DNA from: Crocosphaera subtropica ATCC 51142
Lineage (GTDB): Bacteria; Cyanobacteriota; Cyanobacteriia; Cyanobacteriales; Microcystaceae
Length of the DNA stretch: 32,000 bases
Assembly: GCF_000017845.1 (NCBI RefSeq)
Contig: NC_010546.1
Span: 360,001-392,000, forward strand
Direction of reading: 5' to 3'
Shown in pieces: positions 23,791-32,000 of this stretch. The translations under genes and the position numbers were made by a program. Each line of letters begins with the position of its first letter. The stretch's first letter is position 1. The notes beneath the pieces are model-generated. The model did not search any database and had not been told where the DNA came from. It was given only the letters and a program-made list of their open reading frames with translations.

Positions 23791-24999
23791 TTGAATAATA
23801 TTTGTCGTGTTTGTGATTCAACTAATTTAGAATTAGCTATTGATTTAGGACATCAACCCTGGTGTAATAATTTCTTGAAACTTGAAGAAGTGGGACAAGA
23901 ACCCTTTTATCCCCTCAGAGTTTTATACTGTCATAATTGTGGGACGGTTCAATTAGATTATACCGTTAAAAAAGAAATTATGTTTGGGGATCATACCTAT
24001 CTTTCTGGAGTGACAAAATCCCTCAGTGAACACTTTAAAAATGTTGCCCATGAAGTGGATGATCGCTTCTTTAAAAATACCCCGAATAAGTCCGTTTTAG
24101 ATATTGGTTCCAATGATGGAACACAACTGAAACATTTTCAAGCTTTAGGATATGATGTTTTAGGGGTAGAATCTTCAAAAACCACTGCAAAAATAGCCGA
24201 AGAAGCAGGAGTTCCTACGGTCAATGATTTCTTTAATTTAGAGGTAGTCAAACGCCTTGATCGTAAATTTAACGCTATTAACGCAGCCGGTGTCTTTTTC
24301 CATTTAGAAGAGTTACATTCTGTCACTGAAGGAATAAGAGAAGCATTAACAGAAGATGGTGTTTTTGTAGTTCAATTCCTCTATATGAAGCGAATTGTTG
24401 ATAATTTAGCTTTCGATCAAATCTATCATGAACATCTATTATATTACAATCTTAACACCATTGAAGTTTTATTAAATCGTCATGGTTTATCCATGTTTGA
24501 TGCTTATTTATCACCCATTCATGGTGGATCAATTATCGGGTTTGTTACTCACAAAGGAGAGAAACAAGCAAGCGATCGCTTACAAAAAATGCGTCAAGCA
24601 GAAGTAGAGGAAAAAAGTAATGAATTTTCTACTTATTTAGACTTTTCTAAGCGTATTGAACAGATGAAAGCTGATAACTTAGCTTACTTGGATAAAGCTA
24701 AAAAAGAAGGTAAAAGTGTCTGGGGTTTTGGCGCACCGGTTAAAGGTAATACCATGTTAAACTACTTCGGTGTGGGGACACAATACCTTGATTATTTAGT
24801 AGAAAAAAATGAACTGAGACGGGGACTTTATTCACCTGGAATGCACATTCCTATTGTCATTGAAAAAGAATTAACCGAACTTCCTGACATTTATTATGTA
24901 TTAGCTTGGAACTTCAAAAAAGAAATTTTAGCTAATAATCAGCATTTGATTGATAAAGGAATTGAATTCTATTTTCCTGTTAATCCTCAAGACATTTAG
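23791..24999 (+). CDS. NDP-hexose C-methyltransferase-like enzyme (zinc-ribbon N-domain plus class I SAM methyltransferase, TylCIII-like)
   Basis: It starts at a TTG preceded by AGGAGA. The pattern CRVCDS...LGHQPWCNNF...CHNCGTVQL forms a zinc ribbon. The SAM motif is VLDIGSNDGT, and the C-terminal domain is typical of sugar C-methyltransferases. Confidence 0.75.
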   Translation: MNNICRVCDSTNLELAIDLGHQPWCNNFLKLEEVGQEPFYPLRVLYCHNCGTVQLDYTVKKEIMFGDHTYLSGVTKSLSEHFKNVAHEVDDRFFKNTPNKSVLDIGSNDGTQLKHFQALGYDVLGVESSKTTAKIAEEAGVPTVNDFFNLEVVKRLDRKFNAINAAGVFFHLEELHSVTEGIREALTEDGVFVVQFLYMKRIVDNLAFDQIYHEHLLYYNLNTIEVLLNRHGLSMFDAYLSPIHGGSIIGFVTHKGEKQASDRLQKMRQAEVEEKSNEFSTYLDFSKRIEQMKADNLAYLDKAKKEGKSVWGFGAPVKGNTMLNYFGVGTQYLDYLVEKNELRRGLYSPGMHIPIVIEKELTELPDIYYVLAWNFKKEILANNQHLIDKGIEFYFPVNPQDI

Positions 25000-25023
25000 G
25001 ATTATCTTATAATAGTTGTAAGG

Positions 25024-25083
25024 TGGGCAATATTCAGCAAAACTCATCAAAACCTATCCATAAACTCTTCTCAATATTGCCCA
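25024..25083. repeat. Perfect 11-bp inverted repeat with a 38-nt spacer
   Basis: TGGGCAATATT (25024-25034) pairs with AATATTGCCCA (25073-25083). It lies between the C-methyltransferase stop and the DUF29 start. Confidence 0.7.
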
Positions 25084-25121
25084 TCTCTATTTTATTGCTA
25101 TTATAAGGAGGAGAACTAATC

Positions 25122-25573
25122 ATGAAAACAGTAAAAAAACTTTACGAAACTGACTTTAATTTGTGGTTAGAAGAAACAGCAAGATTACTTAAAGAAAATA
25201 AATTAGAGGAATTAGATATTGAGAATTTAATCGAAGAAATTGAAGCATGGAAAGAAGTGAAAAAAAAGGATTTCGTAGTAACTTAGAACAATTATTACTA
25301 CACCTTTTAAAATGGAAATATCAAAAAAATAAACGATCAGGAAGTTGGGAAAGTTCTATTATTGAACATCGTAATAGAATGTTAGACGACTTAGAAGATA
25401 GTCCCAGTTATAAACCTTATTATGACAATATTTTTGATAAATGTTATCAGAATGGTAGAAAATATGCTAAAGCACAAACGGGTTTGCCTATCAAGACTTT
25501 TCCTGAAGTTTGTCCCTTTCCTAAAACAGAAATTTTAACCTCTGATTATCTTCCTGAAGATGACAATAATTAA
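25122..25573 (+). pseudogene. DUF29-family gene split by a 1-nt frameshift at about 25245
   Basis: A strong SD (AAGGAGG) is followed by an ATG at 25122. That frame encodes MKTVKKLYETDFNLWLEETARLLKENKLEELDIENLIEEIEA and then stops. The rest of the DUF29 consensus (MERSEKKGFRSNLEQLLLHLLKWKYQ...) continues in the ORF at 25247-25573, in a different frame. Confidence 0.7.
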
Positions 25574-25798
25574 AGGCTATCAGTATTCGATTAGAATGAG
25601 TTAGACGATTATAATTAAGGTGTTGAAAAACATCTAATTATCTGTCTTAACCCATAATTTTAGATGGATAAAACCATGAAAAATATCTTAAAAATTACTT
25701 TAAAAATAGTCTCTTAGATAGCAACTAAATTATAATTAAATAATCAGTGTAAAGATTATGCTGTAAATTACAATTATTGTAGAGACTATTAACAGACT

Positions 25799-27307
25799 AT
25801 GACCCTGAAATCATCTAACTATCAATTTACTTATACCCCTCATTATAAACCTAATCAACTAATTTGTGGTCATGGACAAACAGCAATTATTACAGGATGG
25901 ACCGTCAGACAAACTATTGCTAAAAAATTGAACCCAGAAGATTACGCTGTTATCGGAAATTTATACAGTCCCACAAGAGGAATTAGTCCTTTAATTCGTA
26001 ATTTATTAGCGAATCCTCATGTGAGATTTTTAGTTATTTTAGATGCAACCAAAGAAGACAAAAATGCAAGAGGATGTCAATGTTTATTAGACTTTTTACA
26101 ACAGGGTTTTACTCAAGGAACCAGTGATACAGGTCGAGATATTTGGGTAATAAATTCTGAGATTACTGGTTATATTGACATAGAAATTGATGCTAATGCT
26201 TTAGAAACTTTGCGTCAATCTCTTGACTATAAATTAGTAAACTCTATAAGTGAAGCAATCAATTTTATTAAAGAATTTAGTCAACAAAAAAACAAACAAC
26301 CTTGGGGAGAACCTTTAACTTTCCCCATGATGGAAACTACTCCTACAGTATTACCTGGTCCTAGATATGGTCATCGTATTGAAGGGAAAACCATTGCAGA
26401 AACTTGGGTTAAAATATTGCATCGAATTAAAACAACAGGAACCATTAGACCAACTCAATATGGACAATGGCAAGAATTAATTGATTTGACCTCTATTATA
26501 ACAGATGAACCCTTAAATTTCTATTTTCCTAGTTCTAATTATTTACCTATAAAACGAGATTTTATTAATGATTATATTGGACAGATTTTAGACGATGCAC
26601 CCCAAAAAGAAGGGGTAAAATACACTTATGGTCAAAGGTTGCGATCGTGGTTTGAACGAGATCAAATTCAACAAGCAATTGATAAATTAATAACTGATAA
26701 AGACTCATCTAGAGTGGTGATGTCTCTTTGGGATGTGAAAGATTATGAAAATAATGATAGTCCTCCTTGTCTTAATCATATTTGGGTAAGAATTGTTGAT
26801 AATGAGTTATCATTAACAGCAACTTTTCGTAGTAATGATATGTTTTCTGCTTGGCCAGCAAATGCAATGGGTTTAAGAGCATTACAAAAACATATTATAG
26901 AACAAATAAATAAAACTTCTAACCATAATTTTCAATTCGGACCATTAATTATTATCAGTCAAAGCGCACATATTTATAGTGATTGTTGGGAACACGCAGA
27001 CAAGGTTATTGAAACAGAATATACTAGAATATGTCAGCAAAAAAACTATACTGATCCCAGTGGTAGTTTTTTGATTTCTATTAAAAATAATCAAATTATA
27101 GTTGAACATATTACCCCAGGTTCAGGGGAAGTGGTTAACTGTTATTCAGGAAAAACAGCGAAACAAGTTTACCAAAAAATTGCTGATACTTGTCCTGGTC
27201 TTGAAGTCAAACACGCTATGTATTTAGGGTCAGAATTACAAAAAGCAGAAATCTGTTTAGTTACAAATACAGATTTTTATCAACAAGATATACCTCTTGT
27301 TTTTTAA
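25799..27307 (+). CDS. Three-domain thymidylate-synthase-like fusion: MtrA-like N-domain, methanogen-type TS core, and a DUF4346-like C-domain
   Basis: 502 aa. The core carries TS-fold motifs SRVVMSLWDV, SPPCLNH (catalytic Cys), TFRSNDMFSAWPAN and SQSAHIY. The first 165 aa or so resemble MtrA (AIITGW...GNLYSPTRGISPLIRNLLANPHVRFLVIL). The last 90 aa or so resemble DUF4346 (DPSGSFLISI...HAMYLGSELQKAE). Confidence 0.75.
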   Translation: MTLKSSNYQFTYTPHYKPNQLICGHGQTAIITGWTVRQTIAKKLNPEDYAVIGNLYSPTRGISPLIRNLLANPHVRFLVILDATKEDKNARGCQCLLDFLQQGFTQGTSDTGRDIWVINSEITGYIDIEIDANALETLRQSLDYKLVNSISEAINFIKEFSQQKNKQPWGEPLTFPMMETTPTVLPGPRYGHRIEGKTIAETWVKILHRIKTTGTIRPTQYGQWQELIDLTSIITDEPLNFYFPSSNYLPIKRDFINDYIGQILDDAPQKEGVKYTYGQRLRSWFERDQIQQAIDKLITDKDSSRVVMSLWDVKDYENNDSPPCLNHIWVRIVDNELSLTATFRSNDMFSAWPANAMGLRALQKHIIEQINKTSNHNFQFGPLIIISQSAHIYSDCWEHADKVIETEYTRICQQKNYTDPSGSFLISIKNNQIIVEHITPGSGEVVNCYSGKTAKQVYQKIADTCPGLEVKHAMYLGSELQKAEICLVTNTDFYQQDIPLVF

Positions 27308-27352
27308 TCTGTTAATATATAAAAATATAAGAAATAATTTTTCAAAAAAGAT

Positions 27353-28039
27353 ATGACTATCTTAAGTGATCAAGATATAAGGCAAGAAATAGGGATCAAT
27401 ATATATATCTATCCCTATAAAAAAGATAATCTTAAAGGATCTAGTTATAATTTAACTGCCAGTCAATTAGCTTGGGATTTGTCTACTAGAAAAAGTATTT
27501 ATGATAGCAGTCAAAACAAAATTACCATTCAACCTAAGACAACTGCTTTAATAGAAACTAATGAAAGTATTTGGGTATCTCAAAAAATATCTGGAACTTA
27601 TTATTCCCGTGTTAGAGAAGTTTCAAAGGGTACTGGACATATTAGTACAACACTTGATCCTAACTATATTGGATGTTCTTTAATTGCGTTACGTAATCAT
27701 AGTCAATCACCCATAGAAATAACACCTGAAACTGATCCTTTTGTCACCCTTATTTTCCAATATTTACATACACCATCAACCAAAGAACAAACTAGGAATA
27801 CTTCAGGACGAAGAGATTTACTTAGCACACTTGGAATACAATTGAATAAAGAAGAAACAGAATTTCTAGATCGAGAGTTTATGAATAATAAAGATGCACT
27901 ATTGAATAAATTACTAGAATGTGATGATTATAAAATCATACAAAAAAACGAGAGCAAGAAGAAAAAGAGAGACTTGAACAAATATCAAATCAAAAGAAAA
28001 ACCTTTTTTTTAAAAAACAATAACAATATCTTATTTTGA
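27353..28039 (+). CDS. dCTP-deaminase-fold (dUTPase superfamily) protein, divergent, with a charged C-terminal extension of about 80 aa
   Basis: The N-terminus ILSDQDI...INIYIYPY...LKGSSYNLTAS and the core TLDPNYIGCSLIALRN align by eye with the Dcd blocks (LCDRDI, IDPGWSGCIVLEFYN). The Dcd catalytic Glu position is Ala. The tail is Lys-rich (KKKKRDLNKYQIKRK). Confidence 0.65.
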   Translation: MTILSDQDIRQEIGINIYIYPYKKDNLKGSSYNLTASQLAWDLSTRKSIYDSSQNKITIQPKTTALIETNESIWVSQKISGTYYSRVREVSKGTGHISTTLDPNYIGCSLIALRNHSQSPIEITPETDPFVTLIFQYLHTPSTKEQTRNTSGRRDLLSTLGIQLNKEETEFLDREFMNNKDALLNKLLECDDYKIIQKNESKKKKRDLNKYQIKRKTFFLKNNNNILF

Positions 28040-28218
28040 GCAGTTGTCTGATAATATTAATTATATCAGCTATTTGGCTAAGTAATAATCAAAATAAATT
28101 ACAGTCCAAATCCTGGTATAATACAGCTAATAAAGTGATTGAGTGGGTATTGCCTACTATTACAGTAATATTAGTAAACTTATGGATTAATGACATAGAT
28201 CGTAAAGCTAATAAATGA
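28036..28218 (+). CDS. Possible 60-aa two-TM micro-protein, translationally coupled to the Dcd-like gene
   Basis: Its TTG start overlaps the upstream TGA (TTGA). Two hydrophobic segments are present (CLIILIISAIWL and VLPTITVILVNLWI). There is no in-frame ATG, so the call is uncertain. Confidence 0.35.
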   Translation: MSSCLIILIISAIWLSNNQNKLQSKSWYNTANKVIEWVLPTITVILVNLWINDIDRKANK

Positions 28219-28225
28219 AACCAAA

Positions 28226-28263
28226 ACTATCATACTATATAAAAACTATCATACTATATAAAA
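28226..28263. repeat. Perfect tandem duplication of a 19-bp unit directly upstream of dut
   Basis: ACTATCATACTATATAAAA occurs at 28226-28244 and again at 28245-28263. The repeat ends 15 nt before the dut ATG. Each unit contains a TATATAAAA -10-like element. Confidence 0.9.
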
Positions 28264-28278
28264 AGGAAATGTGAGGAA

Positions 28279-28707
28279 ATGCAGATTAAAATCATTAAAT
28301 TAAAAGAAAAAGCAATTATTCCAAAATATGAACATGATAATGATTCAGGACTTGATTTAGTTTCTACAGAAACTGTAGAAATACCATCAGGAGAAAGTAA
28401 ATTAGTTAAAACAGGAATTTCCATTGAATTACCTCCTAATACTGAAGCACAAATCCGTCCGAGAAGCGGACTCGCATTAAAACATCAAATCACTGTTTTA
28501 AACACCCCAGGAACTATTGATGAAGGGTACAGAGGAGAAATAGGGGTTATCTTAATTAATCATGGTAAAAGATCCTTTAAAGTCACTGAAGGAATGAGAA
28601 TTGCTCAGATGGTAATTGCTCCTGTTATTCGAGTAAAAATCCAAGAAGTTGAGCAATTAAGTGATACAATCAGAGGACAAGGTGGCTTTGGTTCAACAGG
28701 GGTTTAA
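28279..28707 (+). CDS. dut: dUTP diphosphatase (trimeric dUTPase)
   Basis: 142 aa with all the classical motifs: [40 protein letters not shown] and [10 protein letters not shown]. Confidence 0.95.
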
Positions 28708-28724
28708 CGTTATTCTTTTTAGCA

Positions 28725-29009
28725 ATGAATATCCCCCAATTTTTTGAGTGGGACGAAAATAAACGTCAAGCTAATATAGAGAAACATGGGATAGACTTTG
28801 CTGACTTAGAGAGGATTTTTACTAATCCATTTATACAGCGTATCGATAACCGTGTTAATTATGGGGAAACAAGAATTATTCTCTTAGGTGAATTAGACGG
28901 AGTTATCCTCTATATTGTATATACTTGGCGTGGGGATCTCTGTCGGTTTATTAGTGCTAGGAGGGCCAACCAACGTGAAAGAAACAAATATTACCAGAGT
29001 GTCTCGTGA
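28725..29009 (+). CDS. BrnT-family (DUF497) type II toxin
   Basis: FEWDENKRQANIEKHGIDFADLERIF...RFISARRANQRERNKY matches the BrnT family pattern. Confidence 0.85.
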   Translation: MNIPQFFEWDENKRQANIEKHGIDFADLERIFTNPFIQRIDNRVNYGETRIILLGELDGVILYIVYTWRGDLCRFISARRANQRERNKYYQSVS

Positions 29010-29181
29010 AGAATGGGCAAAAATGAAGGGTGAAACCGATTGGGATAAGATTAAAGGGATGACTGATGAGGAGATCGAAAAAAATGCCTTAGATGATCCC
29101 GATAGTCAACCTATTCCTGATGAAATGTGGGAAGATGCTCAAGTTGTTTTTCCTCAACAAAATACCGCAGTCAACAGTTAA
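28975..29181 (+). CDS. BrnA/DUF4415-like antitoxin (start uncertain)
   Basis: It contains GETDWDKIKGMTDEEIEKNALDDPDSQPIPDEMWEDA, which is typical of DUF4415 partners of BrnT. I assume the GTG at 28975, which overlaps the BrnT 3' end. An ATG 16 codons downstream is an alternative start. Confidence 0.7.
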   Translation: MKETNITRVSREEWAKMKGETDWDKIKGMTDEEIEKNALDDPDSQPIPDEMWEDAQVVFPQQNTAVNS

Positions 29182-29184
29182 CAG

Positions 29185-29244
29185 TATCAACGAACTTTCT
29201 TGAAGAACAAAGACCAACATGGGATGAAGAGTTTATCATGATAG
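29185..29244 (+). pseudogene. Ghost 5' fragment of the dCMP deaminase gene
   Basis: These 60 nt are 53/60 identical, without gaps, to 29901-29960 (the start region of the intact deaminase gene). The start ATG has become ACG. The fragment encodes (T)NFLEEQRPTWDEEFIMI versus MTFLEEQRPTWDEYFIMI. Confidence 0.75.
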
Positions 29245-29288
29245 TGATGTATAAACCCATGATATAGCAGTTTTCATACTTGTGAGGT

Positions 29289-29422
29289 ACAGAGTTTGTA
29301 GGGGCGGGTTTTTGATAGAAGCTATAATATCAAAACATATCCCAGATAAACCCGCCCGTACAGGGGTTAGGGGTTAGGGATAAGAAGTTAAAGTGTACCT
29401 CATGACTCCGAGAAACGCTATA
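29289..29422. repeat. Copy B of the dispersed MITE-like repeat, carrying nested inverted repeats
   Basis: Its termini are shared with copy A (10166-10257). The outer 9-bp inverted repeat is TGAGGTACA (29283-29291) / TGTACCTCA (29394-29402). The inner 10-bp inverted repeat is GGGCGGGTTT (29302-29311) / AAACCCGCCC (29348-29357). Confidence 0.55.
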
Positions 29423-29431
29423 AATATCTGA

Positions 29432-29518
29432 AAAATTGCTTTAAAAACGTCAGATAAGCATTTTGAAGAAGAAATTACAGCAATGGTTAAAGAAGTAAGA
29501 AATAAGATAAGTGAATGA
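29432..29518 (+). pseudogene. C-terminal remnant of an antitoxin, truncated at its 5' side by the repeat element
   Basis: The open frame KIALKTSDKHFEEEITAMVKEVRNKISE has no start codon. Its TGA overlaps the following ATG in an ATGA arrangement. Confidence 0.4.
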
Positions 29519-29770
29519 TGAAAGTTTTACTAGATAGTAATGTCTGGATTTCTGGATTACTTTGGAGAGGAAAAGCTAGAGAAGTAATTAACTTAGCTCA
29601 ACAAAAAAAGATTACAGTTCTTTGCTATCGTTGAATGAGTTAATAGAAACTTTCAATTATCCTAAACTTCAGCGTCGTTTAAATCAGAAGATTTACTAAT
29701 TTTGCAAGAGTTTAATTCTATTCCTATTGTAACAATTGCTCATTTTTTAGAATTTTATCAAGACTCATAA
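29515..29770 (+). pseudogene. Eroded PIN-domain toxin
   Basis: It starts MMKVLLDSNVWISGLLWRGKAREVINLAQQKKITVLCY and then stops. LNELIETFNYPKLQRRLNQ and EDLLILQEFNSIPIVTIAHFLEFYQDS continue in two other frames. The central part of the domain is missing. Confidence 0.6.
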
Positions 29771-29905
29771 GAGATATTAAAATAATTTTTATAACTTTTA
29801 CGTTTACGAGAAATTTTAATTAACTTGCCACTGCTTACATCAACGGATCATAATAGAGTTTAGGAGTAACAAAAACCCCCTATAACTACCTGTTTAAAAT
29901 TATCA

Positions 29906-30448
29906 ATGACCTTTCTTGAAGAACAAAGACCCACTTGGGACGAATACTTTATCATGATAGCTAAATTAGCTGCTACTCGCTCAACCTGTTTGGCTTTCCC
30001 AGTGGGTGCAGTGATCGTCAAAGATAGACAATTATTAGCTACGGGGTATAATGGCTCACCATCAGGAACAGCACACTGTACAGCACAAGGATTCTGTTAT
30101 CCTGGACTCGATAGCTGTGATAGTTCTAGTAGTCTCCCTTCCCGTGCCATTCACGCTGAAGCCAATGCCATCGCCCAAGCAGCTAAATATGGCATTTCGA
30201 CCCACGGAGCTAGTATTTATGTTACCTTAGAGCCATGCGTTTCTTGTTTAAAATTAATTATCTCTGCAGGCATTAAAGACGTTTTTTATGAAACAGGGTT
30301 TAACAAAGGAGAAAAAGCTCTCGTTAGGGATGCTTTTCTCAAAGATGGATTAGTCAATTTAACCCAGATTCACTTATCCTCAGAAACGGCAAAACGTGCT
30401 TCCATTTTTCTCTTAAACCCCACATCAGTTGCCAGAGAAATGACTTAA
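29906..30448 (+). CDS. Zinc-dependent dCMP deaminase (CMP/dCMP deaminase family, ComEB-like)
   Basis: 180 aa. It begins WDEYFIMIAKLAATRSTC and has the zinc motifs HAEANAI and PCVSCLKLI. Confidence 0.9.
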   Translation: MTFLEEQRPTWDEYFIMIAKLAATRSTCLAFPVGAVIVKDRQLLATGYNGSPSGTAHCTAQGFCYPGLDSCDSSSSLPSRAIHAEANAIAQAAKYGISTHGASIYVTLEPCVSCLKLIISAGIKDVFYETGFNKGEKALVRDAFLKDGLVNLTQIHLSSETAKRASIFLLNPTSVAREMT

Positions 30449-30475
30449 CCATCTAACTTTCATCGTGAGGACAAA

Positions 30476-32000
30476 ATGCAGACGAAATCTTCATCTTCTC
30501 ACCTGTATCATGAACTTTCAGACTTAGAAGTTCTCAAAACTTTTAACAGCGATGTCGAAAAGGGTTTAACCGCCGAAGAAGTGGCCAGACGATTAGAACA
30601 ATATGGCTTTAACGAACTGGAAATAAAACAGGGAAAACCTGCCTGGCTAAGATTACTCTTACAATTTCATCAGCCTTTGCTGTACATTCTACTCATTGCA
30701 GGGGCGATCAAAGCGTTACTCGGTTCTTGGACTAATGCCGGGGTGATTTGGGGGGTAACCATGATCAACGCTGCGATCGGCTTTATTCAAGAATCGAAAG
30801 CCGAAGAAGCGATCGCCTCCCTGTCCAAAGCCGTCACCACCGAAGCCACTGTCATCCGTGATAATAGTACCATCGAAATTCCTTCACGAGATTTAGTCCC
30901 AGGAGACATTGTTCTCTTAGTGTCTGGGGATAAAGTCCCCGGAGATTTAAGACTCTTAAGGGTTCGTAACCTGCAAATTGATGAATCTGCACTCACAGGA
31001 GAATCCCTCCCCGTCACCAAATCTGTCTCCCCTTTACCTGCCGAAACCACTTTAGCCGAACGCACCAATATGGCTTATACCGGCAGTTTCGTCACCTTTG
31101 GCCAAGGCAAAGGAATAGTCGTCGCCACCTCAGAAGCCACCGAAGTCGGTAAAATTTCCCAGTCCCTCGATCAACGGGTCAATCTTAACACTCCCCTCAC
31201 CCGCAAATTTACCAAGTTTAGTCAGACCTTGGTGTATGTCATTTTGGCTTTGGCAACCCTGACCTTTACCATCGGTATCGGCCAAGGAGAGTCTTGGGTC
31301 TATATGTTTGAGGCAGCCGTTGCCTTGGCGGTGAGTGCCATTCCTGAAGGTTTACCGGCCGTTGTCACCATCACCTTGGCCATCGGAGTCAACCGCATGG
31401 CCAAACGTAACGCTATTATTCGCAAATTAAGTGCCGTCGAAGCGTTGGGGAGTGCCACCGTCATTTGTTCAGATAAAACAGGAACCCTTACAGAAAATCA
31501 AATGACGGTTCAATCGATTTATGCAGGAGAAGAACAATATAGTGTAAGCGGTGGTGGTTATAGTCCCAAAGGGGAGATTTCCTGCGATCTTCAAGAACCC
31601 CATTCTCATCAATCCATTGACACCTTGAGTCCGGTGTTAGAAGACTGTTTGAAAGCAGGATTATTGTGTAATGATTCCCATTTAGAAGCCCGTCATGCAG
31701 ATTGGATGGTAGTGGGGGACCCCACGGAAGGGGCTTTAATTGCAGCCGGGGCCAAAGCCGGGTTAAGCCAAGCTGCCTTAAACAACGCCATGCCTCGCTT
31801 AGATGTGATTCCGTTTGAATCAGAGTTTCAGTATATGGCCACTTTACATCGGGATGGGGAAGAATCGCAATCTGAAAGGGTGATTTATGTCAAAGGATCC
31901 GTAGAAGCCATTTTAAGCCGCTCTCAATACCAATTACAGCATGATGGTCAACGGGTGAGAATTGATCGCGCTTTTATTGAAGACAAAGTTGAGAGGATGG
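30476..32000 (+). CDS. P-type cation-transporting ATPase (PacL-like, type II), N-terminal 508 codons; continues beyond the window
   Basis: The ATG at 30476 is preceded by GTGAGGA. Motifs [28 protein letters not shown] and the phosphorylation site CSDKTGTLT are present. The frame stays open to position 32000, so it is absent from the ORF track. Confidence 0.95.

Follow-up and report, generated by a model that had tools for sequence, protein, structure and literature searches.

Why should a gene for thymidylate synthase (TS) and genes for enzymes that supply its substrate, deoxyuridine monophosphate (dUMP), stand side by side on one strand, when thyA, dcd and dut are unlinked in Escherichia coli? 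This question is raised by a locus in a 32,000-nucleotide stretch of DNA (the window; contig NC_010546.1, positions 360,001 to 392,000) from Crocosphaera subtropica (Cyanothece) ATCC 51142, in which five coding features and a set of insertions occupy positions 25799-30448; the first gene of the cluster is 100% identical to cce_0382. The list of open reading frames (ORFs) and scans against Pfam and NCBIfam place all of these features on the + strand, at the positions given for them in an earlier reading made from the letters of the DNA alone (the sequence-only reading). That reading had left three interpretations standing, namely a housekeeping cluster for the supply of thymidine monophosphate (dTMP), a horizontally acquired module that reshapes deoxynucleotide pools in the manner of anti-phage systems, and a pathway for a modified pyrimidine. 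We consider it highly probable that the segment is a conserved cyanobacterial housekeeping locus for dTMP precursors that also holds lineage-specific junk and one decayed accessory gene, and that it is not a foreign island, a design with two routes to dUMP or a DNA-modification pathway.

Conservation of the locus and its enzymes

The TS gene at the head of the cluster encodes a three-domain fusion that is present in 368 GTDB species genomes and is 63-88% identical across cyanobacteria. We used the best 80 of these 368 TS loci, with 10-kb flanks, as a synteny set and counted full ORFs within 3 kb downstream of TS in the 64 loci that have at least 3 kb of downstream sequence. A gene for dUMP supply lies in this interval in 48 of the 64 loci, with deoxycytidine monophosphate (dCMP) deaminase found in 25, the deoxyuridine triphosphate (dUTP) diphosphatase Dut in 19, the canonical deoxycytidine triphosphate (dCTP) deaminase Dcd in 18, and a protein like DcdTM, the membrane-anchored relative of Dcd described below, in 16. 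Because it recurs in three quarters of the loci, the clustering is not a matter of chance, and the phage-like rarity that had been attributed to it gives way to a common cyanobacterial arrangement. In the standard scheme dUMP is supplied by Dcd and Dut (the E. coli type) or by dCMP deaminase (the Gram-positive and eukaryotic type). The Dut and the deaminase of the window are ordinary members of their families, and related cyanobacteria use a canonical Dcd of 193-199 amino acids at the same locus; the cyanobacterial arrangement differs from the standard one in two respects: the genes stand in physical linkage with TS, and the two deamination routes swap at one locus, dCMP deaminase and canonical Dcd never being found together within the 3 kb (0 of 64 loci).

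The same-strand order TS-(DcdTM)-Dut-dCMP deaminase is shared by Crocosphaera relatives, UCYN-A (L026) and four diatom endosymbionts (L017-L019 and L021). In UCYN-A and the diatom spheroid bodies the genes for TS, Dut and dCMP deaminase are adjacent, without DcdTM and without toxin-antitoxin (TA) genes, and TS, Dut and the 180-amino-acid deaminase persist in genomes reduced to 1.4-3 Mb. Many Nostocales and Oscillatoriales have a variant in which a canonical dcd lies on the opposite strand, followed by genes for CobO and Adk. In Dendronalium, ThyX occupies the TS position (ThyX-DcdTM-Dut-dcd-dcd-CobO-Adk) within an otherwise identical neighborhood. Relics of displacement are also present: in two loci all that is left of the deaminase is its C-terminal half (residues 89-178), next to an inserted dcd (L011, 8759-9028; L014, 5978-6250), and Kastovskya carries a 40-amino-acid C-terminal remnant of ThyX upstream of its TS fusion (L032, 8866-8985). 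Among 31 cyanobacterial genomes, 23 were counted with ThyX and 8 with ThyA by COG (PMC5954106), and these numbers are consistent with one TS per genome, either ThyX or ThyA. The gene order kept in Crocosphaera, UCYN-A and the diatom endosymbionts, together with its variants in Nostocales and Oscillatoriales, supports the housekeeping interpretation and contradicts horizontal acquisition of the segment as a whole. As a separate observation on canonical dcd, three loci carry an intein-bearing form of 581-588 amino acids (L072:12472-14238, L081:6221-7966 and, in Nostoc sp. PCC 7107, L176:6709-8457); the intein is of family PF14890 in L176, and tblastn matches are split around an insert of ~360 amino acids.

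The TS gene (cce_0382; 25799-27307, +) encodes 502 amino acids, in which Pfam and NCBIfam models recognize an MtrA-like N-terminal domain (residues 43-178; NF002128, 51.6 bits), a ThyA-type catalytic domain (residues 194-410; PF00303, 64.7 bits against a cut-off of 24.3, over residues 271-410) and a pterin-binding PterinBD-DUF4346 domain at the C-terminus (residues 419-497; 89.7 bits). The best NCBIfam match is to TIGR03283, a model of short archaeal proteins ('thy_syn_methano'), at 136.5 bits against an equivalog cut-off of 174.55, while models of bacterial TS give 43-55 bits against cut-offs of 108-405. When solved ThyA structures are aligned with the protein, the catalytic Cys ('SPPCL'), the RSxD motif, the Asn that corresponds to E. 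coli N177 and reads uracil, and a His and a Tyr near the C-terminus of the domain are all in matching positions; 'SPPCLNH' and FRSNDMFSAWPANAMG of the window's protein pair with 'PPCH' and RSADMFLGVPFNIAS. The equivalents of E. coli C146, R166, S167, D169 and N177 are invariant across 12 cyanobacterial TS sequences. The protein differs from ThyA in the addition of the MtrA-like domain (~180 amino acids) and the DUF4346 domain (~80 amino acids), and in a substitution at one Arg of the pair in the 'SRR' motif, which here reads 'DSSR'. An AlphaFold model of the fusion, built from the alignment of 12 sequences, was poor (predicted local distance difference test score, pLDDT, 66; predicted template modelling score, pTM, 0.44) and was kept out of the fold search. 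The identification of cce_0382 as the thymidylate synthase of the locus, with a predicted conversion of dUMP to dTMP, is supported by its alignment with ThyA and, indirectly, by the ThyX that takes its place in Dendronalium and by its persistence in reduced genomes.

The N-terminal domain falls in the corrinoid-binding MtrA family (window 25799-26340), and the C-terminal domain is a pterin-binding module. A gene for the cob(I)alamin adenosyltransferase CobO (PF02572) lies within 3 kb in 21 of the 64 loci (CobO genes in L030-L085); CobO also adjoins the ThyX-type locus, and the link with TS may be coincidental. With its corrinoid-type and pterin-binding domains the enzyme may use a cofactor cycle unlike that of classical ThyA; a cycle dependent on corrinoid would be pure speculation. 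Cyanobacteria that lack ThyX, including the N2-fixing symbionts UCYN-A and the diatom spheroid bodies, appear to depend on this uncharacterized three-domain TS, and its additional domains raise the question of cofactor use and bear on the problem of the missing dihydrofolate reductase in such organisms. The three-domain TS is one of two parts of the locus that we regard as worth further work, the other being the association of DcdTM and Dut with anti-phage dCTP deaminase that is described below.

The full three-domain TS is also encoded on 82 uncultured viral contigs of IMG/VR (among them L086-L165), at 40-63% identity. On one of these (L102:7986-9530) the TS gene is followed by genes for the large and small subunits of ribonucleotide reductase, near virion structural and head-decoration proteins, and on another (L097:8004-9533) the large terminase subunit (gpA) is encoded nearby. 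Among isolated phages in GenBank there was no DcdTM and no full-length TS fusion, and only distant matches to the TS domain were obtained (24-31% identity). A phage gene adjacent to ribonucleotide reductase fits a role as thymidylate synthase, and this gene context shows phages as the probable borrowers of a host enzyme, rather than as the source of the cluster. The precursor genes of phage T4 (cd, td, 42 and 56) resemble the cluster in outline, as both sets comprise a dCMP deaminase, an enzyme of the TS family and a dUTPase/dCTPase, and the uncultured phages carry the same three-domain TS beside ribonucleotide reductase; unlike the T4 genes, the cluster of the window is chromosomal, vertically conserved and not surrounded by phage genes.

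The two remaining enzymes of the pathway are conventional. The dut gene (28279-28707, +) encodes a canonical trimeric dUTP diphosphatase that scores above the NCBIfam cut-offs (NF001862, 191.5 bits against a cut-off of 103; TIGR00576, 191.1 against 102.55), matches PF00692 at 116.5 bits and is 65-91% identical across cyanobacterial loci in tblastn searches. The deaminase gene (29906-30448, +) encodes a zinc-dependent dCMP deaminase of the housekeeping type, 180 amino acids long (PF00383, 94.1 bits against a cut-off of 25), with the HAE and PCxxC motifs in its translation ('AIHAEANAI' and 'LEPCVSCLKLI'); by tblastn it is 71-96% identical in related loci. Its score against the ComEB model TIGR02571, 130.6 bits with a cut-off of 219.45, indicates similarity at the level of the family and not equivalog status. 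As judged from family membership, dCMP would be converted to dUMP by this deaminase, Dut would convert dUTP arising from dUDP into dUMP and keep uracil out of DNA, and the three-domain ThyA-type enzyme would methylate dUMP to dTMP. The additions made in the Crocosphaera lineage would lie outside this pathway: a DcdTM gene directly upstream of dut, a brnT gene with a short ORF downstream of dut, and an insertion of ~650 bp that would have brought in a miniature inverted-repeat transposable element (MITE)-like sequence and a dead PIN module while duplicating 67 nucleotides of the 5' end of the deaminase gene.

The DcdTM gene and its family

Between TS and dut, two genes had been described in the sequence-only reading, a 'Dcd-like' ORF (27353-28039, identical to cce_0383) and a 'micro-membrane' ORF of 60 amino acids (28036-28218). 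Comparison with intact homologs resolves them into pieces of one gene, which the loss of 1 bp and a TAA in frame have split, and the whole is a pseudogene (27353-28218, +). We coined the name DcdTM for the family of cce_0383, which comprises membrane-anchored proteins of the Dcd/dUTPase fold; its intact members have 260-330 amino acids and two C-terminal transmembrane (TM) helices. Relative to the intact 289-amino-acid homolog P0122, the window follows one frame to ~27942 and then another through EQEEKERLEQISNQKKNLFFKKQ to the TAA at 28021-28023, past which the same frame runs on as the 60-amino-acid ORF to 28218. When the DNA is aligned to the undamaged copy from a Crocosphaera metagenome-assembled genome (MAG; L007), the 1-bp deletion falls at ~27942/27943, in a run of A, and a 6-bp insertion, CAATAA, is seen to supply the in-frame TAA. 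The DcdTM gene of C. watsonii WH 8501 is broken independently, by a net loss of 223 bp that shifts the frame. Judged by these lesions, DcdTM in ATCC 51142 is inactivated, or is at least without its membrane anchor.

The window's protein matches PF22769 at 41 bits and the Dcd equivalog model TIGR02274 at only 31.3 bits against a cut-off of 92.8. In order to compare active sites, we aligned ~60 DcdTM members with canonical Dcd, Dut and archaeal dUTPase; cyanobacterial canonical Dcd and the archaeal dUTPase 8Y1W gave the same register as the E. coli Dcd reference. The Glu required for deamination (E138 in the 'TLEF' of E. coli) is Ala, Ser or Thr in every member, so that DcdTM has 'LIALRNHS' where Dcd has 'TLEFSNS'. 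The RS[SG] motif (Ser111/Arg115) is changed to HS[KR]V in all of the ~60 members, and the Asp of motif 3 is retained ('TLDP'). A profile search of PDB sequences gave as best matches the dUTPase of Thermococcus pacificus (8Y1W) and the dUTPase P45 (9LN0), with an E-value of 2.5e-13. An AlphaFold2 model of DcdTM (pLDDT 84) was superimposed on 8Y1W by Foldseek with a target-normalised TM-score of 0.86 and a root-mean-square deviation of 1.9 A, and the structures ranked next were Dcd-Dut and Dcd, which places the protein in the Dcd/dUTPase beta-barrel fold; the model also shows a linker that is helical and, at the C-terminus, two long helices. A literature search on the PDB codes 8Y1W, 9LN0 and 9LN3 brought up nothing but unrelated papers from materials science.

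The archaeal Dcd-like dUTPases (8Y1W and P45) are therefore the nearest relatives of the N-terminal domain of DcdTM, at 29% identity, and neither group has the deaminase Glu. DcdTM differs from them in having HS[KR]V for the phosphate-binding RSS motif, YNLT for YDLR and Thr for the Gln of motif 4, and in adding the linker and the two C-terminal TM helices. Because RSS, YDLR and the motif-4 Gln are all replaced, dUTPase activity of DcdTM is doubtful as well. By its active-site residues, DcdTM is predicted not to be a dCTP deaminase, and the cluster would for that reason hold one deamination route and not two. The proposal that both routes to dUMP are encoded here fails on this point, since neither the deaminase Glu nor the Ser/Arg motif is present in the protein, which is nearest to archaeal dUTPase and is disrupted in this strain. 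Among the best 120 relatives (at least 74% identity) of the Dcd from a Crocosphaera MAG there was no canonical Dcd of C. subtropica or C. watsonii, which suggests that ATCC 51142 lacks a canonical dcd. 

Two further DcdTM-like subtypes with C-terminal TM helices were observed at the TS/dut/dcd locus of other cyanobacteria. One lies between TS and dCMP deaminase, with no Dut detected (L025:11763-12608, L047:11538-12308, L051 and L073; +), and the other beside canonical dcd (L011:7231-7953, L030:11569-12270, L035, L058 and L067; -).

DcdTM and Dut outside the housekeeping locus

In cyanobacteria DcdTM is always encoded directly upstream of dut, whether it is preceded by the TS fusion, by ThyX or by neither. 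A metagenome scan recovered 122 DcdTM relatives, which were reduced to 58 lineages after removal of housekeeping contexts and collapse at 85% identity. Dut directly follows DcdTM in 30 of the 48 non-housekeeping lineages that could be assessed, with gaps of -68 to +282 bp and frequent overlaps. In seven lineages a protein of 487-933 amino acids is encoded directly beside DcdTM, usually with Dut next, so that the three genes form a tight operon; this neighbor is upstream of DcdTM in L226, L227, L235, L237, L247 and a group of 16 human-gut contigs around L251, and downstream in L257. Four of these neighbors, scanned singly, match the anti-phage dCTP deaminase of PADLOC at 295-368 bits, and the others were assigned by phmmer homology. 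Elsewhere DcdTM is found near a type I restriction-modification system and ERF (Halodesulfovibrio), SIR2 and HNH proteins, integrases, methyltransferases, Septu PtuA, PARIS AriA, an endolysin and a capsid protein. In one lineage (L245) a small deaminase of 192 amino acids is followed by DcdTM and then Dut, the same gene set as in the window. On a metagenomic Nostocales-like contig (L180:1787-3286), the ThyX-matching ORF upstream of DcdTM-Dut has 499 amino acids, twice the usual length; an intein or a wrongly called start may account for it.

The defensive dCTP deaminase is presented in the preprint by Tal et al. (10.1101/2021.04.26.441389) as a single gene, with dUTP cleared by the housekeeping dUTPase of the host; in a term search of that preprint, neither an operon partner nor a neighboring Dut gene nor a transmembrane protein came up. 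We found no description in the literature of DcdTM, alone or with Dut, adjacent to anti-phage dCTP deaminase. It is likely that DcdTM is a non-deaminating protein that binds pyrimidine deoxynucleoside triphosphates (dNTPs) and works with Dut. The protein could be a catalytically disabled, membrane-anchored trimer of the Dcd/dUTPase fold whose ligand would be a pyrimidine dNTP, most plausibly dUTP; at the membrane it would act as a dNTP sensor or effector, while the co-translated Dut would set the level of the ligand. In the three-gene operon, a burst of dUTP from the activated deaminase would serve both as the signal for DcdTM and as the substrate of Dut. In cyanobacteria the DcdTM module would have lodged beside the native dut of the dTMP locus, and in ATCC 51142 its copy would have decayed. 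We tentatively put forward DcdTM-Dut as a so far undescribed accessory module, made up of two genes, in nucleotide-depletion immunity, a proposal that we hold to be possible though doubtful. If it holds, these pseudo-enzymes, tied to Dut and in some cases to anti-phage dCTP deaminase, could extend a single-gene mode of nucleotide-depletion defense to a multi-gene variant.

These neighborhoods revive the suggestion that the whole cluster, or at least its DcdTM, Dut and deaminase genes, is an acquired anti-phage module for nucleotide depletion, with the TA genes as passengers of an island. The 58 lineages, the frequent adjacency to Dut, the seven lineages with a protein of the anti-phage deaminase type and the defense, integrase and phage genes around DcdTM all speak in its favor, as do the AT-richness of the segment and its TA genes. 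The window's deaminase has the zinc-deaminase core in common with the anti-phage dCTP deaminases (PADLOC dCTPase, NF041025) and AvcD/DcdV, and it is intact DcdTM-Dut pairs that stand beside long deaminases of that family. The window's enzyme nevertheless has 180 amino acids against more than 400, lacks the N-terminal domain and is a syntenic housekeeping gene; it amounts to the catalytic core only, scoring 92.8 bits against the NF041025 cut-off of 400, and its match to the PADLOC dCTPase profile is confined to residues 79-128 (profile positions 436-485 of 630). PADLOC gives no match for DcdTM, TS, Dut, BrnT or the BrnA-like ORF. Across cyanobacteria, TS, Dut and the deaminase keep their synteny at 70-90% identity, and they are retained in the reduced genomes. 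DcdTM is broken in this strain and in C. watsonii, and the endosymbionts do not have it. The gap in HIP1 sites is ordinary (see below), and the segment is flanked by neither an integrase gene nor a tRNA gene. We therefore regard an acquired defense module as very improbable for this cluster. What stands of the defense interpretation is an indirect support, from contexts elsewhere, for DcdTM with or without Dut; it does not reach the rest of the cluster, and the copy in the window is a relic. Still less probable, to the point of being negligible, is that the TS-like fusion makes a modified pyrimidine, such as 5-hydroxymethyl-dUMP or another C5 adduct, and that the cluster feeds DNA modification. 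The fusion is indeed atypical in its MtrA-like and DUF4346 domains and its scores below the equivalog cut-offs, the same three-domain gene is carried by phages, and TS and dUMP hydroxymethylase are indistinguishable from the conserved Cys and Asn alone. Against this, ThyX stands in the TS position in Dendronalium and has left a relic upstream of the fusion in Kastovskya, the count of ThyX and ThyA in 31 genomes fits one TS per genome, the fusion is retained in minimal endosymbiont genomes, its neighborhood holds no kinase, glycosyltransferase or other gene for modification, and the phage copy lies beside ribonucleotide reductase, the usual place of a thymidylate synthase. The modified-pyrimidine idea thus gains no support.

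It is also conceivable that the truncated, 228-amino-acid DcdTM (cce_0383) works as a soluble protein of the Dcd/dUTPase fold, its lesions being strain remodelling or sequencing artefacts. The fold domain (residues 1 to ~150) is uninterrupted and is 70-71% identical to the nearest intact homologs, P0122 and P0123, the invariant residues of the family can be read in the ORF, and both the position of the frameshift in a run of A and a frameshift in the nearby DUF29 gene are compatible with assembly errors. On the other side there are two independent lesions, one of them the 6-bp insertion that creates the TAA; the C-terminal TM helices are kept in all of the 50-odd homologs and in the 58 metagenomic lineages; the gene is independently disrupted in C. 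watsonii; and, with neither the deaminase residues nor the motif-2 Ser present in the family, no step from dCTP to dUTP would be gained even from an intact copy. We judge this alternative improbable.

The reading that we prefer, a housekeeping locus with a decayed DcdTM, has several points against it. Sixteen of the 64 TS loci (for instance in Microcystis) have no dUMP-supply gene nearby, and linkage is thus common and not obligatory. We infer, rather than read from a whole-genome scan, that ATCC 51142 has no thyX, canonical thyA or dcd elsewhere. The TS scores below the NCBIfam equivalog cut-offs, which would allow a related C5-transfer chemistry, and full-text literature searches for 'DUF4346' and 'cce_0382' returned no papers. 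Co-transcription of the cluster is not supported by the promoter and terminator scans: promoter-like sites number 27, where shuffles lead one to expect 25.1, and the single terminator-like site, on the opposite strand and inside the MITE, compares with 2.8 expected. As for DcdTM, its ~195 N-terminal residues form an open frame with the fold domain intact, from which the cell could yet make a soluble, truncated product that could also be active; the frameshift in the A-run could be a sequencing error of the 2008 assembly, which is less likely for the 6-bp insertion with the TAA.

Composition, flanks and insertions

The cluster is AT-rich and free of HIP1 sites, as had been noted, and neither property sets it apart. 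Its GC content is 0.29-0.33, and two other stretches of the window are equally low; HIP1 occurs 10 times in the 32 kb, and longer stretches without it, of 7.2 and 8.7 kb, are found at two other places in the window. We rejected a conclusion of foreign origin from low GC, because the orthologous loci are syntenic in relatives, and likewise one from the absence of HIP1, given the number of sites and the two longer gaps. There are no tRNA genes in 24000-32000, no Rfam families in 24900-30700, and no ORF of integrase size among those of 24000-32000, not all of which were scanned against families. Just upstream of the cluster, a DUF29 gene (cce_0381; 25122-25573, +) is divided into two overlapping ORFs of 54 and 108 amino acids by a frameshift at gaagcatggaaag, relative to the intact copy in L007. 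It is the second disrupted gene within 2.5 kb, and the frameshift could be due to decay or to an assembly error.

The features between dut and the deaminase gene, namely BrnT, a 67-nucleotide gene fragment, the MITE-like element and a PIN remnant, are, by comparison with related loci, lineage-specific insertions. The brnT gene (28725-29009, +) encodes a full-length type II toxin, a ribonuclease (PF04365, 94.1 bits against a cut-off of 34.5, positions 1-77 of 77). Overlapping its stop is a BrnA-like ORF, a putative antitoxin (28999-29181, +), of 60 amino acids from GTG or 52 from the ATG at 29023. This ORF has no Pfam or PADLOC match even at E <= 1, lacks the usual C-terminal DNA-binding part, and resembles the N-terminus of BrnA by eye only. 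Of the 'intact BrnTA pair' proposed earlier, the toxin thus stands and the antitoxin is without support from a hidden Markov model. Together, brnT and the short ORF occur in L006, L007 and L025 but not in C. watsonii (L010), L013, UCYN-A or the spheroid bodies. The short form of the antitoxin is not specific to this strain, since the DNA is colinear with L007 through the end of the ORF.

The window is colinear with L007 over 25117-29247 and again from 29894 on, with 29248-29893 unmatched; as L007 is colinear on both sides, the unmatched part is an insertion. The left edge of this ~650-bp insertion is marked by the gene-fragment scar (29178-29244), a duplicate of the 5' end of the dCMP deaminase gene that forms a 67-nucleotide direct repeat of 29894-29960, 87% identical. 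Within the insertion lie the remnant of a PIN-type TA module (29424-29770, +), in which the 3' end of an antitoxin gene overlaps a fragment of the PIN N-terminus and decayed sequence follows, and the MITE-like element. The PIN fragment (29515-29634, 39 amino acids) reaches 25 bits against PF13470, whose cut-off is 27, over positions 1-38 of 115, and 25 bits against TIGR00305; stop codons occur in all frames after it, and the domain is incomplete. The MITE-like element (29263-29422) consists of nested inverted repeats, 29263-29291 with 29394-29422 and 29297-29311 with 29348-29362. The repeat analysis and the partial PIN profile match bear out the scar, the MITE-like repeat and the dead PIN module as they had been described, and the core motif of the element occurs four times in the window with at most two mismatches, against 0.1 expected.

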